A stretch of 64,000 bases of DNA. Origin: Escherichia coli (lineage in GTDB: Bacteria; Pseudomonadota; Gammaproteobacteria; Enterobacterales; Enterobacteriaceae). Position 1 is the stretch's first letter. Each line of letters begins with the position of its first letter. Where the stretch lies: NCBI RefSeq assembly GCF_017348835.2, contig NZ_CP071375.1. One strand, given 5' to 3'. A program made the translations under genes and the position numbers. This document shows positions 12,536 to 61,505 of this stretch, piece after piece. A model generated the notes under the pieces. The model did no database searches and was not told where the DNA came from. It saw nothing but the letters and a program-made list of their open reading frames with translations.

Positions 12536-12908
12536 TTAGTCTGTTATCCCAAAAACTCACGGATTGTCGTGAGTGAAAATTGTTTCTTGTTGCTCACTAA
12601 GCACTATCCGTTTGTTATTTCACCATCGGATATGTAATTGAGAATCATTCAACCATGCGCTGATGTAGTAGTAAATGAGAAATAACAAAAAATTGCTACA
12701 TGTGTTTTTATGAGAGGTTAATGCAATTCAATTGATGGTAATTTATTAATATTTAATGGTTTTATTTTTATCTTTAAAAATATTTCACCTATTATTTACC
12801 TTGTTTTTGTATGGCTTTTAACTTCTTGACTACTACATTTTGTGGCGTCAAACTCTCAAAGGAGAATGAGTTTTATTTTTGTTTGTCTTTGATTAAGTTG
12901 GCGTACAC
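12536..12908. promoter_or_regulatory. AT-rich divergent promoter region for receptor gene and ABC operon, with Fur-box-like element near 12634-12652
   Basis: About 370 bp AT-rich intergenic between divergent starts; gagaatcattc resembles half of the Fur consensus GATAATGATAATCATTATC. Confidence 0.35.
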
Positions 12909-36152: not shown

Positions 36153-37340
36153 TTATACAATCCGCGCAAAACCGGCGTCCAGATCGGCAATCAGATCGTC
36201 GACATCTTCCAGACCAATATGCAGGCGAATCAAGGTCCCGCTAAAATCGATCTCGCCTTGTGGGCGAATGGCGGCGATATGTTCTGGTTGATTTGCCAGG
36301 ATCAACGATTCATACCCACCCCACGAGTAGGCCATGCTGAATAAACTGAAGTTATCCAGATAGTTCGCCAGCTCTTCATCATTGAGTTTTTTCTTAAGCA
36401 CAAAGGAAAATAGCCCGCTGCTGCCTGTAAAGTCTCGTTTCCAGAATTCGTGTCCTTTACTGCCAGGCAGGGCAGGGTGGTTAACTCGCGCAACTTGCGG
36501 ATGTTCTGCCAGCCATTCGGCCACTTTCAGACTGCTTTCATGATGTTGACGCAAACGCACACCTAATGTGCGCAGGCCACGGCTGGTTATATAGGCGGTA
36601 TCAGCATCGACCATTTGGCCCATCAGATAGGCATTTTCCCGTAGCTGCTCCCAGCAACGGGCATTGCACACCGCAGTGCCAATCATCGCATCTGAATGCC
36701 CAACCAGATATTTGGTGGCGGCCTGAATAGAAACATCGATGCCAAAATCCAGCGCCTTAAACAGCATACCGGCTGCCCAGGTGTTGTCGATCATAATGAT
36801 GGCATCCGGCACCACACTGCGCACGGCGGCAACAATCGCCGGAACGTCGTGGACTTCCATAGTGATGGAACCCGGCGATTCCAGAAATACGATTTTAGTG
36901 TTTGGCTGCAGATGCTTAACGATATCGGTACCAATCAGCGGATCAAACCACGATGTCGTTACGCCCAGTTTGCTGAGGATTTTGCTACAGAAATCTTGAC
37001 TCGGTTCATAGGCGGTGTTGGTCATCAACACATGATCGCCCTGTTCGACAAAAGCAAGAATGGAATTAGCAACCGCTGCCGCCCCGCAGGGAAATAGCAC
37101 GCAGCCTGCGCCACCTTCCAGTTCACACATCGCTTGTTGTAAGGAAAAATGGGTTAACGTTCCGCGCCGTCCATAGAACAACTCGCCATTGGCGCGATTG
37201 CGTGTCGCGTGCTTTTTGGCTTCCACACTGTCAAAGACCAGCGAAGAAGCGCGCTGAATCACGCTATTTACCGCGCCGAGAGTGTATTTTTTGCTGCGTC
37301 CTGCATTCACCAGTTGAGTATCAAGCTTTTTGTCCGCCAT
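36153..37340 (-). CDS. metC: Cystathionine beta-lyase (PLP-dependent)
   Basis: 395 aa from [20 protein letters not shown]; PLP-lysine region; ORF-track start is upstream extension. Confidence 0.92.
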
Positions 37341-37360
37341 GTCGGGATTCCTGTTTTTAT

Positions 37361-37376
37361 ACGTCTGGATGTCTAA
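37361..37376 (-). promoter_or_regulatory. Candidate tandem MetJ boxes upstream of metC
   Basis: Minus-strand reads AGACATCCAGACGT, two adjacent 8-mers close to the met-box consensus AGACGTCT, about 20-35 bp upstream of the metC start. Confidence 0.45.
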
Positions 37377-37503
37377 ACTAGCATGAATATTCGCGGGCGC
37401 ATCCTGAAGAATTGGCATAAAGCAGAAAATTTTCGCAAATGGCGTGCTGGTGACTTTTTTACTGCGTAAACGCAAGGAAAAGAAAGCAAAGGTACGGCAG
37501 TAT

Positions 37504-37532
37504 GCAAATAGTAATGAGAACGACTATCAATT
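37504..37532 (+). promoter_or_regulatory. Candidate Fur box upstream of exbB
   Basis: aatagtaatgagaacgactatcaatt resembles Fur consensus; exbBD is a known Fur-regulated operon. Confidence 0.4.
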
Positions 37533-37591
37533 CGACGTCGTTTTGATATTATTATGCGCAGATTTTGTGACTTGCGTCCTGGAGATACACA

Positions 37592-38326
37592 GTGGGTAAT
37601 AATTTAATGCAGACGGACCTTTCCGTCTGGGGTATGTATCAGCACGCCGATATTGTCGTTAAGTGCGTGATGATTGGGCTTATTTTGGCCTCCGTAGTCA
37701 CCTGGGCAATCTTCTTCAGTAAGAGCGTAGAGTTCTTCAATCAGAAGCGTCGCCTTAAGCGCGAGCAGCAACTGCTGGCTGAAGCGCGTTCCTTAAACCA
37801 GGCCAACGATATCGCCGCTGATTTTGGTAGCAAAAGCTTAAGCCTGCATTTGCTCAATGAAGCGCAGAATGAGCTGGAACTGTCAGAAGGCAGCGACGAT
37901 AACGAAGGTATTAAAGAACGTACCAGCTTCCGTCTGGAGCGTCGGGTCGCCGCAGTAGGTCGTCAAATGGGCCGCGGTAACGGCTATCTGGCAACCATCG
38001 GCGCGATTTCGCCGTTCGTTGGGCTGTTTGGTACGGTCTGGGGCATCATGAACAGCTTTATTGGTATCGCGCAAACGCAGACTACTAACCTGGCAGTCGT
38101 TGCGCCGGGTATCGCAGAAGCTCTGTTAGCAACGGCAATCGGTCTGGTGGCAGCGATTCCGGCGGTCGTTATCTATAACGTATTCGCGCGTCAGATTGGC
38201 GGCTTTAAAGCGATGCTGGGTGATGTCGCAGCGCAGGTATTGTTGCTGCAAAGCCGTGACCTGGATCTGGAAGCCAGCGCCGCTGCGCATCCGGTTCGTG
38301 TCGCACAAAAATTACGCGCAGGATAA
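37592..38326 (+). CDS. exbB: TonB-system energiser ExbB
   Basis: 244 aa MotA/TolQ/ExbB family; apparent GTG start. Confidence 0.92.
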   Translation: MGNNLMQTDLSVWGMYQHADIVVKCVMIGLILASVVTWAIFFSKSVEFFNQKRRLKREQQLLAEARSLNQANDIAADFGSKSLSLHLLNEAQNELELSEGSDDNEGIKERTSFRLERRVAAVGRQMGRGNGYLATIGAISPFVGLFGTVWGIMNSFIGIAQTQTTNLAVVAPGIAEALLATAIGLVAAIPAVVIYNVFARQIGGFKAMLGDVAAQVLLLQSRDLDLEASAAAHPVRVAQKLRAG

Positions 38327-38332
38327 TGTCCG

Positions 38333-38758
38333 ATGGCAATGCATCTTAACGAAAACCTCGACGATAACGGCGAAATGCATGATATCAACGTGACGCCGTT
38401 TATCGACGTGATGTTGGTTCTGCTGATTATCTTTATGGTGGCGGCACCGTTAGCGACGGTAGATGTGAAGGTGAACTTGCCTGCTTCTACCAGCACGCCG
38501 CAGCCACGCCCGGAAAAACCGGTTTATCTGTCGGTGAAGGCAGACAACTCGATGTTTATCGGTAACGATCCGGTCACCGATGAAACAATGATTACGGCGT
38601 TGAATGCGTTAACCGAAGGCAAGAAAGACACCACCATCTTCTTCCGAGCGGATAAAACCGTCGATTACGAGACGTTGATGAAGGTAATGGATACGCTGCA
38701 TCAGGCGGGTTACCTGAAGATAGGTCTGGTCGGCGAAGAAACCGCCAAAGCGAAGTAA
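38333..38758 (+). CDS. exbD: TonB-system protein ExbD
   Basis: 141 aa, single TM then periplasmic domain. Confidence 0.92.
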   Translation: MAMHLNENLDDNGEMHDINVTPFIDVMLVLLIIFMVAAPLATVDVKVNLPASTSTPQPRPEKPVYLSVKADNSMFIGNDPVTDETMITALNALTEGKKDTTIFFRADKTVDYETLMKVMDTLHQAGYLKIGLVGEETAKAK

Positions 38759-56445: not shown

Positions 56446-58050
56446 ATGGTAACTAAAAAGGTAAAAACAAACCACCCGTACTATCGTGTTTTATCTGGCA
56501 CCTCCATGCCGTTTCCCCACATACATGAAGCTGTTTCCGAACAGTTGCTTCTACTCATTTTCAAAGCACGCAGATTGTATCTGGATCCAGAATATCGTCC
56601 CTGGTTTGATGAACAACATCGGATTCTCTCGGCATTACGCGCTAACACAAAACTACAAAATATTTTAGAGCAAAATAGAGAGGACTACTCCATAGGTGAG
56701 ACCGATAATCCACTATCTAAAGAGCTGTATGCTGCTTTTCAGGTTATGTGCCATTTATACAATGGTTTTGATAACAGACTCGTCAGCCTGAAAACCTGGG
56801 GAGATATGAACAGGGAACCAACAGCAAAATTTGTCGGCCAAAATAGTGGTGGCTGGAAAACACCTGAGATGGAAGAATTCGTCAGAAACGATTTGTTCAA
56901 TATTCTGACAGATTGCAAAGCTCATTGCTCACCACTTCCCGCTCTGGTTCGACAAGGATATTGCCATCAGGATCTTTCTGTTGCGCACTCATGTACTAAA
57001 GAATTACTGGAACAACTGAACCGATACCATCAAATTGATGAATCAGCGATACTTGCCAGAACCCTTGGTTTGGCTATTAACAACTGCTATCACTCAAAAA
57101 CAGAGATTCCTGAATGGCTTTCTCCTTTTGAAAATGAATACAAAAGTCCCTGGAATTGTGAGAAACCAGATACTAACGATGTGAGTAAACTTAGAAAACA
57201 ATTGCTAACAATCGGGCGTACAGAATTCGTGGACAAAATGTTTTCGCTAGCCAACAAAAATGCAACAAAGATAATATATGATGGATACGTTAAACTTTAT
57301 GCTCTGGAAATATATGAATGGTTAAATAAATTAGTGCAATATTTTAAAGGAAATGATTTTATTCGTTACACCTGGAAATTCACAACAATTATTTCCGATG
57401 AAAGTGACACGATTGAAAACACCACCGCATGGGAAAAAGACTATTGTCAAATCACTATACAGCGCGATGAACTTCTGAAACTGATTTATACCAATACCCT
57501 GCAGGATGCAGCAATGAATCTTGCTGGTTGCCTGCAACAGGCATACATAGAACCGTTAAAAAGGGAAATAAATTATCCAGGAATAAACATTGATGCAAAA
57601 GAGCGTGAAATTAGAAAATCTATTGAATTCAGGAGCGAACTGAATAACTTCACAAACATCATGAAACAACTGGAAACATTTGAAAAATGGTATAATGCCA
57701 ATAAAATTCTGTTGGTAAGTAACAAAAAGAAACGTACAGAAAAGATTGACGTGAATATTCGTCTTGCAGGACTGAAAGGCTATGATCTGAATGAAGGTAT
57801 ACCTGATGGTCAGGGACGCAAAATTAAAGATGGTGTGAATGAACTCGTCAAGGCAGATGGCAGTCTACAACTTCCACAAGATATCAGTGACACTTCGCTT
57901 AACCGTTACCGTCAAGCAGTTCAACACATTATTAAGGATGAGATCGACACGTTGCTGATAGCACAGAGGGAAAAAAATAAAATAAATCCATATAGCGAAG
58001 ATAGATACTCTATACGACCTTTATGGGGAAAATGTCTGGTCGAACAGTAA
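56446..58050 (+). CDS. Hypothetical protein, 534 aa, no recognisable domain (islet cargo)
   Basis: Long uninterrupted ORF with RBS-like GGAAG upstream of ATG; AT-rich, Lys/Glu/Asn-rich, predicted helical; no Walker, nuclease, TIR or other motif found by eye. Confidence 0.6.
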   Translation: MVTKKVKTNHPYYRVLSGTSMPFPHIHEAVSEQLLLLIFKARRLYLDPEYRPWFDEQHRILSALRANTKLQNILEQNREDYSIGETDNPLSKELYAAFQVMCHLYNGFDNRLVSLKTWGDMNREPTAKFVGQNSGGWKTPEMEEFVRNDLFNILTDCKAHCSPLPALVRQGYCHQDLSVAHSCTKELLEQLNRYHQIDESAILARTLGLAINNCYHSKTEIPEWLSPFENEYKSPWNCEKPDTNDVSKLRKQLLTIGRTEFVDKMFSLANKNATKIIYDGYVKLYALEIYEWLNKLVQYFKGNDFIRYTWKFTTIISDESDTIENTTAWEKDYCQITIQRDELLKLIYTNTLQDAAMNLAGCLQQAYIEPLKREINYPGINIDAKEREIRKSIEFRSELNNFTNIMKQLETFEKWYNANKILLVSNKKKRTEKIDVNIRLAGLKGYDLNEGIPDGQGRKIKDGVNELVKADGSLQLPQDISDTSLNRYRQAVQHIIKDEIDTLLIAQREKNKINPYSEDRYSIRPLWGKCLVEQ

Positions 58051-58132
58051 CTCACTGAGAAAGGGGATAGCAGTTCGCTATCCCCAAGGGAGACTTTCCA
58101 GCAAGATCTCAAAAAACGAGACACTCGGCAAA

Positions 58133-58729
58133 TTATGCGGCTTTACCATTAACAGATTCAGCCACAAGAACGACAGCGTGTCTGTTTCGCTCAGGATGTT
58201 CACTCCAGATTTCTGATTCCGGGATGCTTTTCCCGTCATAACTGATCCGTTCGCCATCAAACGGGTAATACCGTGCGGAATCAGTATCTAAAATAAACAC
58301 CTTCAGATTCGTTGAACGACGCGCAATATGCTGCCAGAGAGCTTTACCTCCTTCATATTGCTCGTTATCACTTAATAGTACAACGCCCGCTTTTGTGACT
58401 ATCGTTTCATAAACAAACGTTGCAAGACCAACATCACGTACAGCGCCATCGACAACAATCCCTTCAATCTGAGCAACATCCTGTTCTTCCCAGAATTTCT
58501 GGACAAACACGCCTTCAAGCCGGGGACGACGCTGAAGCTCCAGAGTGGCAACAACCTTATGGCGAACATCACCATCAATAACAGAAGGTGCAGCTTCGAT
58601 TACCGCAGCAAACGGAGTCTTTGGATCCCAGATGATCTGGTAAAGCACGCCCTGAATAGTTACTCCATCCAGTATCGAAAAACGACGAGCTACAGTAGCA
58701 GGGGAGTAAGACATTGGAATTACAGCCAT
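58133..58729 (-). CDS. Hypothetical protein, ~198 aa (islet cargo; convergent with the 534-aa gene, same strand as integrase)
   Basis: ORF with GAGGGG RBS 9 nt upstream of ATG (MAVIPMSYSP...); ORF-track version starts at an upstream GTG (58759); no domain recognised. Confidence 0.55.
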   Translation of the reverse strand: MAVIPMSYSPATVARRFSILDGVTIQGVLYQIIWDPKTPFAAVIEAAPSVIDGDVRHKVVATLELQRRPRLEGVFVQKFWEEQDVAQIEGIVVDGAVRDVGLATFVYETIVTKAGVVLLSDNEQYEGGKALWQHIARRSTNLKVFILDTDSARYYPFDGERISYDGKSIPESEIWSEHPERNRHAVVLVAESVNGKAA

Positions 58730-58858
58730 TTTTGAATCCCCTCTGAGTAATACCGGCACGAAAATTTACCTCAATAATTATAGTAAACAATACAAGAACC
58801 AAGTGCATCAACAATACCCATCAATTGTACACAATTCGTACAGCGACCAGGAACTCCC

Positions 58859-60175
58859 TCACCTTCTGCCAAACAGATTGACAACATTATTGCCTGTTTG
58901 CTGTTGATAGTTATTAACCCGGTCCTCCCAGATCTCAAGTGCTCTGCGTTTTTCTGGCAAATAATCGTATCGATCATAATGTTTTGAACTGACATCGTTC
59001 AACGCATGATTTTGAATACGATCGCGGATTTCCTTACTGATCCCAGCTTCTCCCATTAACGTTTTACAGGTCCGACGTAAGTCACGTGCTGTAAAAATTT
59101 TAAAGTCAGGATTAAAAGCCCGGAAATACATGATAGCGCGAGCCAGACTGTCCGTACGAACCGGACGCTTACCATTAGTCGAAAGTGGAAAAATGTAAGG
59201 GCTGGATTTTTCTTTTGTTAACTCCTGCACACAGGATAATTCCTGTAATGCTGATTCAGTCAACGGTATCAAATGCTCTCGTTTATTTTTAGAGACATCA
59301 GCAGTCACCAGCAGCGTTTTTTGTTGAAAATCAACATCACACCACTGACTGGCGATCATTTCGAAGGGACGTTGCCCTCCGGTATAGATACAGAATCGGA
59401 TCAAATGTTGCATCAATAATCCAACGTTGGTTGCTTCAGCAAAATGTTCCATTAGAAAACGCAACTCTTCAAGTGTCAGCCAGGTATCACCGACTTTTTC
59501 AGCAGATGACTGTTTCGGTATCACTGACACCGGATTTGCCTCCAGCCCAAAAGTAATCCCTGCACTTGTGTTCATCGGATCGTTATCTGCTTTCAGTCCA
59601 TAGTTAAATGCAGCCATCAGGTAAGAACGGATCCGGTTAGAGTGAACCACAGCACCACGCTGAATGATCCCGGCCAGGATATGTTTAATCTGTCCGGAAG
59701 TCACATCTTTAGCTTTAGTTTCACGGGGGATCACTGTATAGCATTCATTTTCAAGGCGTTTCAGAACATCCTGCCATGTCCTCTTATTATCAATTTTCAT
59801 TTTGTTAACATAACCATGAATCAATGCTTCAAATGAGCCCTGTGATTGATGGAGTTGTATCCGCTGCTGTTCTGCAAACTGTTGTCGTTCCAGTTCTGCC
59901 TGGGGATCCTTTCCTTCAATGAGCCAGGCACCATACTTTTTTGCCAGTTCATTCGCTGTGGCCAGTTTCATCTCAGGCCATATACCCAATTGAATGAATC
60001 TTTCTTTTTTCCCTTTTTCCACGTAATAGCGGAAATAGAAAATCTTGCTGCCAGAAGACTGAACTTTGACACCAAGTCGTCCAGTGCCACGTTGAGAGCT
60101 GTTGCTCCAGACATAGAACGATGTCTTTTTTGCTTTCAATGCTCGGATGGCTGTTTCAGTAAGATTGACGGCCAT
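58859..60175 (-). CDS. Tyrosine site-specific integrase (P4-like, N-terminal DUF4102-type arm-binding domain)
   Basis: 438 aa; C-terminal catalytic region with R...HxLR...Y pattern (..LRRTCKTL.., ..HYDRYDY..); adjacent to tRNA-derived att repeat. Confidence 0.85.
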   Translation of the reverse strand: MAVNLTETAIRALKAKKTSFYVWSNSSQRGTGRLGVKVQSSGSKIFYFRYYVEKGKKERFIQLGIWPEMKLATANELAKKYGAWLIEGKDPQAELERQQFAEQQRIQLHQSQGSFEALIHGYVNKMKIDNKRTWQDVLKRLENECYTVIPRETKAKDVTSGQIKHILAGIIQRGAVVHSNRIRSYLMAAFNYGLKADNDPMNTSAGITFGLEANPVSVIPKQSSAEKVGDTWLTLEELRFLMEHFAEATNVGLLMQHLIRFCIYTGGQRPFEMIASQWCDVDFQQKTLLVTADVSKNKREHLIPLTESALQELSCVQELTKEKSSPYIFPLSTNGKRPVRTDSLARAIMYFRAFNPDFKIFTARDLRRTCKTLMGEAGISKEIRDRIQNHALNDVSSKHYDRYDYLPEKRRALEIWEDRVNNYQQQTGNNVVNLFGRR

Positions 60176-60371
60176 AGAACCTCTTTTCTAAACCAGTAAC
60201 AATCAGAATAACTCGTGATTTTGGGTCAGGTAATGGGTCAGGTAACGATCGTACAATGAAGAAAAAACGGAACCAAGCGGAGACAGAGAAAATTACATAA
60301 TTCATTGATTATAAACAACTAATAAAGCAATCGCGAACAAACAAAAACAATATAGAACGAACTTGCCTCAT

Positions 60372-60418
60372 GACTCATAATCGCTTGGTCGCTGGTTCAA
60401 GTCCAGCAGGGGCCACCA
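60372..60418 (+). repeat. Partial tRNA-Ile(CAU) (ileX-type) 3' end: 47-nt att direct repeat, not a functional tRNA gene
   Basis: GACTCATAATCGCTTGGTCGCTGGTTCAAGTCCAGCAGGGGCCACCA matches anticodon stem-loop (CAU) through CCA of ileX as remembered; the 5' half of the tRNA (GGCCCCTTAGCTCAG...) is absent and replaced by island sequence. Confidence 0.75.
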
Positions 60419-60426
60419 GATACAGT

Positions 60427-60460
60427 AAAGGCTGACGAGAAATCGTCAGCCTTTTTCTTT
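60427..60460 (+). terminator. Native ileX terminator
   Basis: Hairpin ggctgacga...tcgtcagcc followed by TTTTTC. Confidence 0.6.
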
Positions 60461-60471
60461 TCATATATCAG

Positions 60472-61236
60472 TTACTTCGCGTGCCAGTAAGCCGCTGCAC
60501 GTACCTGTTGAGGGTCATACTGTTCCGCTTCAAAGCGACGGCTTAAATTCTTCACCACCTTCCCTTCGCCGGTTATCCAGATGAAGTAATCATCGGCAGG
60601 GATTTGCATCTGCGCCAGACGCGCATCTACCGCCTGCTCATCATGTGCCAGCCATTCGATATTAAAACCATCAAGGTGCGCGAGATAATCCTGACAGGCG
60701 TTATCCCGCACGCTAACCAGCGCGCTAACTTGCGGTTTAACGGCAAGTTTGCTCAACGTTTCCAGGCGGCGGCGCAGTGCGGGCATTCCGGATTCATCGC
60801 AGACATACAGCTGATACGCGTAATCTTCCGGCACCACCAGCGAACCGCGCGGACCTGCCACCGTGAGTTTATCGCCCGGTTGGGCCTGCATTGCCCAGCT
60901 ACTGGCGACGCCGTCTTCGTGAATAAAGAAATCAATCGCCAGTTCATGGCGTAGTTCGTCATACAACGGCGTATAGTCACGCGACGGTGGGCGTGGTCCT
61001 TCCGGCCAGACGATGCCCTCTTCCGTTACCGTTGGCGGCACAAAGTGAGCGTCAGGTTGAGGAAAGAAGAGTTTGCTGTGATCGTCAAAGCCGCGCGATG
61101 TAAAACCGTCCAGCGCCTCGCCGCCAAGGACAATGCGCTGAAAACCGGCGCTGATACGCTCAACGCGTAGCACAGTCAGTTCACGGAACCGCAGATCATT
61201 GCGAACGCGCTGCGGGTAGCGGGGGGTGTTATTCAT
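60472..61236 (-). CDS. yqjH: NADPH-dependent ferric-siderophore reductase (siderophore-interacting protein, FAD-binding)
   Basis: 254 aa, MNNTPRYPQRVRNDLRFRELTVLRVERIS..., ViuB-like. Confidence 0.9.
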   Translation of the reverse strand: MNNTPRYPQRVRNDLRFRELTVLRVERISAGFQRIVLGGEALDGFTSRGFDDHSKLFFPQPDAHFVPPTVTEEGIVWPEGPRPPSRDYTPLYDELRHELAIDFFIHEDGVASSWAMQAQPGDKLTVAGPRGSLVVPEDYAYQLYVCDESGMPALRRRLETLSKLAVKPQVSALVSVRDNACQDYLAHLDGFNIEWLAHDEQAVDARLAQMQIPADDYFIWITGEGKVVKNLSRRFEAEQYDPQQVRAAAYWHAK

Positions 61237-61257
61237 TGTTATCGCCTTCGTGATGGT

Positions 61258-61314
61258 AATCAGATATATCTAAATAAAACTCGCAAATGATAATGATTGT
61301 TAATCATGATAAAT
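61258..61314. promoter_or_regulatory. yqjH promoter region: palindrome ATCAGATATATCTAAAT plus Fur-box-like AAATGATAATGATTGTTAATCATGATAAAT
   Basis: Near-perfect dyad symmetry seen directly; matches Fur consensus GATAATGATAATCATTATC; yqjH is a known Fur- and YqjI-regulated gene. Confidence 0.55.
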
Positions 61315-61389
61315 GCAAGCGATTTGTAGAACTGATATGTCTATAGTCTGATAAGACGAACCGCCTCTTCTCAGGCATCATTACTCAAC

Positions 61390-61424
61390 GCCGGATGCGG
61401 CGTGAACGCCTTATCCGGCCTACG
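61390..61424. repeat. REP element in yqjH-yqjI intergenic region
   Basis: gccggatgcggcgtgaacgccttatccggcctac. Confidence 0.7.
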
Positions 61425-61477
61425 TGTGAGATGAGTCCACGTTTAAAAATCATTTTTACACTTGCAAGAGCTCTCAT

Positions 61478-61505
61478 ATCAGATATAAATTAGATATATC
61501 TAATT
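61478..61505. promoter_or_regulatory. Second palindromic operator-like site (ATCAGATATAaattAGATATATCTAAT) immediately upstream of yqjI
   Basis: Shares the AGATATATCT core with the site at 61258-61275; sits 20 bp upstream of the yqjI start, consistent with autoregulation. Confidence 0.45.

Follow-up and report, generated by a model that had tools for sequence, protein, structure and literature searches.

The 251-bp intergenic region between metC and exbB, which occupies exactly positions 37341-37591 of the 64,000-nt Escherichia coli stretch analysed here (the window), is very probably built as two independent, back-to-back repressor-controlled promoters, with MetJ acting on metC and Fur acting on exbBD. 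The MetJ and Fur operators that lie between the two genes are already known and are unchanged from K-12. Alignment of 291 bp across the metC–exbB region revealed the same base as in K-12 MG1655 at every position, and the experimental results obtained with K-12 therefore carry over directly to this strain. An earlier note on this DNA had claimed that the regulatory architecture appears intact in this strain and fits known regulation; the base-for-base identity of the intergenic region bears out the first claim, and the correspondence of both sites to published operators, described below, bears out the second. The window matches the reverse complement of E. coli PE164, a pig isolate (NZ_CP114128.1), at 100%. 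Little is at stake in this result: methionine control of metC and iron control of ExbBD are the same in pig-derived PE164 as in K-12; the comparative data bring a modest gain in the form of a clean footprint of the exbB Fur box, likely extended −10 elements and one conserved block. The features of the region are as follows.

36153-37340, minus strand: metC, cystathionine beta-lyase (ATG at 37340)
37359-37366, minus strand: Met box 2, AGACGTAT
37367-37374, minus strand: Met box 1 (promoter-proximal), AGACATCC
37375-37383, minus strand: putative extended −10 of metC, TGCTAGTTT (TGnTAGTTT)
37455-37480, unstranded: conserved block of 26 bp, TTTTTTACTGCGTAAACGCAAGGAAA
37485-37507, unstranded: Fur ChIP-exo peak of iron-replete MG1655
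37507-37537, unstranded: published Fur cluster, approximate extent
37513-37531, unstranded: Fur box 19-mer, AATGAGAACGACTATCAAT
37544-37552, plus strand: putative extended −10 of exbB, TGATATTAT
37592-38326, plus strand: exbB (GTG start at 37592)
38333-38758, plus strand: exbD, 3′ of exbB, co-transcribed with it and co-regulated by Fur

The identity of the flanking genes is supported by NCBIfam matches of cystathionine beta-lyase, ExbB and ExbD well over the curated cut-offs (833 bits with NF005990 for metC and 344 bits with the ExbB model TIGR02797 for exbB), and for metC also by the open reading frame list and the RefSeq annotation of K-12 and PE164. The intergenic region has a GC content of 41% versus 51% for the window, and the met operator and the Fur operator are separated by 138 bp.

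MetJ is a ribbon-helix-helix repressor with S-adenosylmethionine as its co-repressor, and it binds as one dimer per 8-bp box with a minimum of two adjacent boxes. The tandem met-box-like octamers that the earlier note had placed directly upstream of metC proved to be two such boxes, tandem 8-bp repeats resembling the consensus AGACGTCT in exact register, the second of which ends 18 nt before the metC ATG; in the sense of metC, the order is TCATGCTAGTTT AGACATCC AGACGTAT AAAAACAGGAATCCCGAC ATG. Scanning with the information-weight matrix of Augustus & Spicer 2011 (PMC3228920, Table 3; thresholds of 3.15 bits for a single box and 12.58 bits for the whole site) yielded 8.96 bits for box 1 and 9.96 bits for box 2, 18.92 bits in total, and this pair was the sole site in the 64 kb over the published thresholds. 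The flanking octamers scored −9.4 and −8.7 bits with the same matrix, and the operator thus comprises exactly two boxes. A consensus scan agreed, with the minus-strand 16-mer at 37359-37374 matching the double consensus AGACGTCTAGACGTCT at 13 of 16 positions, the best match in the 64 kb (runner-up, 11/16). Dinucleotide shuffles of the 64 kb contained a mean of 0.87 sites over the MetJ thresholds, and a site of at least 18.92 bits appeared in 2 of 100 of them.

This pair is the published metC operator. Table S1 of PMC3228920 lists for K-12 metC (b3008) an operator of 2 boxes, 18.92 bits and 18 nt from the start, with the sequence agacatccagacgtat, and the operator found here does not differ from it in sequence, position, box number or score. 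The same work counts metC among the known E. coli MetJ-regulon genes that trained the matrix and reports a gel shift in which the metC–exbB intergenic fragment was bound by MetJ. Compared with the metF and metB/J operators, which have 4–5 boxes, the metC operator represents the minimal two-box form. We also considered the octamer CGACGTCG (37533-37540) as a third met box and rejected it, as it is solitary, scores about −0.9 bits with the published matrix and is separated from the real boxes by 158 bp.

Fe2+-Fur binds as dimers to 7-1-7 units that overlap. The Fur-like site that had been claimed upstream of exbB was confirmed as the 19-mer at 37513-37531, a 19-bp A/T-rich inverted repeat like GATAATGATAATCATTATC and TGATAATnATTATCA that lies 61–79 nt upstream of exbB, with its centre (37522) at −70 from the exbB start. 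By direct reading, its 7-1-7 core TGAGAAC-G-ACTATCA (37515-37529) matches TGATAATnATTATCA at 11 of 14 positions; the classical 19-mer consensus GATAATGATAATCATTATC is matched at 13 of 19 positions in the register 37510-37528, a level that 28 strand-positions in the window reach. We constructed a symmetrised Fur position weight matrix (PWM) from 18 K-12 site centres given by Chen et al. 2007 (PMC2189734, Table 4), with exbB left out, taking the training 19-mers from NC_000913.3 and verifying each converted centre against the annotated gene start. In leave-one-out tests, the 18 sites scored between 16.3 and 27.9 bits. The exbB site, at 18.2 bits with this matrix, exceeds the lowest of them and ranks second in the window; the top score, 22.5 bits, belongs to the nfeF/yqjH site, itself among the training sites, and the next match after exbB reached 15.2 bits. 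When the intergenic region was shuffled 20,000 times, only 9 shuffles attained 18.2 bits, and 0.01 sites at or above this score are expected per shuffled 64 kb.

As with metC, the site coincides with a published one. Chen et al. 2007 (PMC2189734) placed the strongest exbB site at U00096.2 position 3150076, −70 from the start, with 19.1 bits and confirmation by gel shift, and this coordinate maps to exactly 37522 (exbB start 3150006 in version 2, 3151984 in version 3 and 37592 in the window). The K-12 exbB Fur box has the same sequence and position (centre −70), and nothing differs in this strain. In the table of strong clusters of that study, exbB stands at rank 27 as a three-site cluster of 31 bp, whose extent given in the feature list we derived from its size, its centre and its 3 overlapping sites (Table 4); our own PWM, in contrast, detects one strong Fur site only, with a secondary match of 2.4 bits centred at 37510. 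A consensus-predicted site upstream of exbD showed no Fur binding in the same study. The ChIP-exo peak reported for iron-replete MG1655 (3150091-3150113; PMC10164565, Dataset 2), mapped via the exbB start, falls 6 bp upstream of the Fur 19-mer and not on it. Gao et al. 2023 (PMC10164565) count exbB and exbD in the core Fur regulon of their nine E. coli strains, in which fur deletion derepressed both genes with log2 fold changes of 1.9–5.5; metC is absent from the Fur tables of that work. For the K-12 sequence, which is identical, the literature demonstrates binding by MetJ and Fur and regulation in vivo.

Several further sequences around the Fur box and elsewhere in the window came up in this analysis. 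The AT-rich TTTTGATATTATTATG (37541-37556) was tried as a Fur box and rejected, since its PWM score is below 0 bits and its consensus match is 9 of 19 positions; it is better read as an extended −10. A 24-bp near-perfect palindrome, TATCAATTCGAC–GTCGTTTTGATA, covers 37525-37548, reaching from the right Fur-box arm as far as the TG of the putative extended −10 of exbB, and its centre, CGACGTCG, is only moderately conserved (0.6–0.9); the palindrome probably arose incidentally from Fur-like hexamers on either side. Other Fur-PWM matches in the window were found at 12859-12883 (15.2 and 12.9 bits, centres 12868 and 12874), at 55963-55981 (14.8 bits, centre 55972) and at 1331-1349 (14.5 bits, centre 1340), each below the weakest training site.

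Among 5,426 complete E. coli genomes, 5,102 carry the 44-bp met-box segment at 99% identity or more, and 4,218 carry the 57-bp Fur/−10 segment at that level. Comparison of four E. coli strains revealed 17 substitutions, all outside the 35 operator bases, for which our own arithmetic gives a chance of approximately 0.08. Because substitutions within E. coli are too sparse to show selection, we extended the scan across species. A degenerate pattern for the ExbB peptide WGMYQHAD, applied to a single genome of each species, yielded at least 120 loci; as the pattern selects by exbB coding sequence, the choice of loci is unbiased for the intergenic region. Among the at least 120 loci listed, 76 have a divergent metC upstream of exbB, and these span approximately 20 genera from Escherichia to Yersinia, Serratia, Dickeya and Pantoea.

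Among the matches listed, the best Fur match was the orthologous 19-mer in all 76 divergent-metC loci. Across these 76 listed loci, 15 of the 19 positions are invariant, three have one alternative base and the centre alone is free (G in 34, T in 30, C in 11 and A in 1). Inverted-repeat models of the Fur box likewise leave the central position unspecified. Relative to an idealised Fur consensus, the exbB site has G and C for T in the left arm and C for T in the right arm, and these departures are themselves kept across Enterobacterales; TAAATAGT, upstream of the 19-mer, is also conserved. The 19-mer also precedes exbB in approximately 30 Enterobacterales loci, among the matches listed, that showed no metC in the 1.8 kb upstream of exbB, and this retention shows that the Fur box belongs to exbB.

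Conservation of the met boxes, expected of a MetJ operator in metJ-carrying relatives, holds within Enterobacteriaceae. Among the matches listed, they lie 16–22 nt from the metC ATG in 49 of 49 Enterobacteriaceae loci, with a third box in some species. By the published thresholds, no met boxes were found among the listed loci of Pantoea, Erwinia, Tatumella, Yersinia, Dickeya and Brenneria, and in Serratia they lie elsewhere, 60–73 nt from the ATG. A published count of met-box presence, 81 of 119 Enterobacteriales, agrees with this patchy distribution. Over the 49 distinct Enterobacteriaceae intergenic regions listed, the met boxes had a mean identity to the window of 0.94 and the Fur 19-mer one of 0.98, compared with 0.745 for the remaining sequence. 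Both operators are under purifying selection.

The position of the Fur box relative to exbB varies in some genera. In the Serratia, Yersinia, Dickeya, Brenneria and Samsonia loci (including L020, L024, L029, L037, L038, L052, L070, L078, L082 and L102), it lies approximately 260–390 nt upstream of the E. coli-equivalent exbB start, with the module of Fur box and extended −10 unchanged. This distance fits the long N-terminal extension of ExbB that one report describes for Serratia (PMC9008036).

The same alignments point to the promoters on which the two repressors would act, and we infer the promoter hexamers and the geometry of occlusion from the sequence and its conservation. On the metC side, the putative extended −10 abuts met box 1, and its TG and TAGT(T/C)T are kept, with n varying (C/G/T/A), in approximately 40 of the 49 Enterobacteriaceae loci listed with near-ATG met boxes; the met boxes would accordingly overlap the −10 and transcription start of metC. 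On the exbB side, TGnTAnnnT follows the Fur 19-mer in 76 of 76 loci listed, at exactly 12 nt in 69 and at 14 nt in 7, which would place the implied −35 at approximately 37524-37529, within the right-hand arm of the Fur box. A generic two-hexamer sigma-70 promoter scan of the region returned no site, as expected for TG-extended promoters with a weak −35. A terminator scan of the region gave one terminator-like site, which is at chance level, and a search of 36900-38100 against Rfam at E≤1 gave no match. The constitutive promoter reported by Shimada 2014 lies between metC and yghB, outside the metC–exbB region.

On this arrangement, two MetJ dimers would bind 37359-37374 cooperatively when S-adenosylmethionine is plentiful. 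As the boxes abut the putative TGCTAGTTT element and cover the expected start, bound MetJ would block RNA polymerase and switch off cystathionine beta-lyase synthesis. When iron is plentiful, Fe2+-Fur dimers would occupy the inverted repeat at 37513-37531 together with weaker flanking sites, overlap the −35 of the extended −10 promoter TGATATTAT and repress exbB–exbD. Iron starvation would then derepress exbB–exbD, powering TonB-dependent uptake. The Fur-controlled fepA–fes and fepD–entS regions are likewise compact and divergent, with operators overlapping promoters as would be the case here; there, however, a single Fur cluster acts on the genes of either side, whereas the metC–exbB region has an unrelated repressor for each direction, apparently with no cross-regulation.

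Part of the region between the two operators might provide an additional layer of control. Most positions of the block at 37455-37480 are conserved at 0.9 or above in the 49 Enterobacteriaceae intergenic regions listed, while its flanks vary, and within Enterobacteriaceae the block is as conserved as the operators; it was not seen outside this family among the loci listed (Pantoea, Erwinia, Serratia and Yersinia among them). The block can be read as the inverted repeat CTGCG-N4-CGCAAG, with a T-run and GGAAA as its flanks, or as a CpxR-like GTAAA-N5-GGAAA. A third factor could act through it, CpxR or a dimeric regulator being the candidates and FNR a possible contributor, and we entertain this only tentatively, as something rather less probable than its absence; it would add to, and not replace, the main explanation of MetJ on metC and Fur on exbBD.

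For CpxR, GTAAACGCAAGGAAA is one mismatch from the consensus GTAAA-N5-GTAAA (9/10), a level that four sites in the 64 kb attain; for the exact pattern GTAAA-N5-GKAAA, 0.29 occurrences are expected per 64 kb. An overlapping CpxR box at 37476-37490 is a prediction of Zhao 2022 (PMC9600279), who also observed changes in metC and exbB mRNA, but the metC change persisted in a cpxR deletion (0.08 versus 0.06) in that study. In addition, the CGCAA that would be the spacer is kept in 47 of 49 sequences, above pentamer 1 (GTAAG in 32, GTAAA in 9), and pentamer 3 is not conserved. The pentamers of a CpxR box at 37466-37490 are thus not conserved above the spacer, and because the spacer is the more conserved part we withhold a CpxR assignment; the CTGCG-N4-CGCAAG inverted repeat appears to read better than a CpxR site. 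For FNR, a ChIP-chip peak falls in the region at approximately 37403 (U00096.2 3150195; Grainger et al. 2007, PMC1802558), but the best match in the region to the FNR motif TTGAT-N4-ATCAA is 6/10, short of an FNR site, and the authors listed no site either. Scans of the region with CpxR, FNR, CRP and MetR consensus sequences gave no convincing match. The block might be a candidate operator of a third, Enterobacteriaceae-specific regulator of metC and/or exbBD, beyond the classical descriptions, a still more doubtful proposal. Such a regulator, if real, might explain reported Cpx- or anaerobiosis-linked changes in metC/exbBD.

Coupling of iron and methionine regulation, with MetJ also controlling exbB and/or Fur also controlling metC, would be conceivable in a 251-bp region common to both genes, the more so as the fragment used as exbB operator is physically bound by MetJ; nevertheless, we judge it very improbable. 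An exbB reporter revealed no MetJ repression of exbB (PMC3228920), so that exbB is not MetJ-regulated according to published work. Moreover, the two operators stand 138 bp apart, each beside its own putative −10, and the Fur box stays with exbB where no metC is detected upstream or where met boxes are missing. The two operators appear independent.

That the met-box-like and Fur-like sequences are functionless chance matches, a reading that the AT-richness of the region, the modest agreement with the classical Fur consensus (13/19, equalled at 28 strand-positions) and the 0.87 above-threshold MetJ sites per shuffled 64 kb could favour, is effectively refuted, and deserves next to no credence, by the rarity of the observed scores (2/100 window shuffles for MetJ, 9/20,000 intergenic shuffles for Fur), by conservation of both operators far better than that of their surroundings across dozens of species and by the gel shifts, ChIP-exo and reporter data published for the identical sequence.

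Two observations concern the remainder of the window. At 54756-60175 (junction near 56317), pitB is followed by a truncated ‘thymidylate kinase’ fragment and an IS3-family transposase (55061-56274), then by two hypothetical open reading frames, a tyrosine integrase (58859-60175) and nfeF(yqjH)–nfeR–aer. In K-12, nfeF(yqjH)–nfeR–aer is found on the opposite side of exbB, at a distance of approximately 64 kb. Positions 40001-64000 are collinear only in PE164 among 5,426 complete E. coli genomes, which marks the nfeF–nfeR–aer junction, as read from the sequence, as a strain-specific rearrangement; it was probably mediated by an IS element or genomic island, and no tRNA gene was found at 54000-61500. 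Owing to this rearrangement the nfeF/yqjH Fur site is present in the window: the divergent nfeF/nfeR (yqjH/yqjI) region carries the Fur box AATGATAATGATTGTTAAT at 61286-61304 (centre 61295; 22.5 bits), the same as in K-12. The second observation concerns annotation. ExbB (37592-38326) is named ‘tol-pal system-associated acyl-CoA thioesterase’ by RefSeq/PGAP in thousands of E. coli genomes, a wrong product name that we traced to NCBIfam NF007722, a full-length ExbB model; TIGR02797 (tonB-system energizer ExbB) is also over its cut-off on the same open reading frame.
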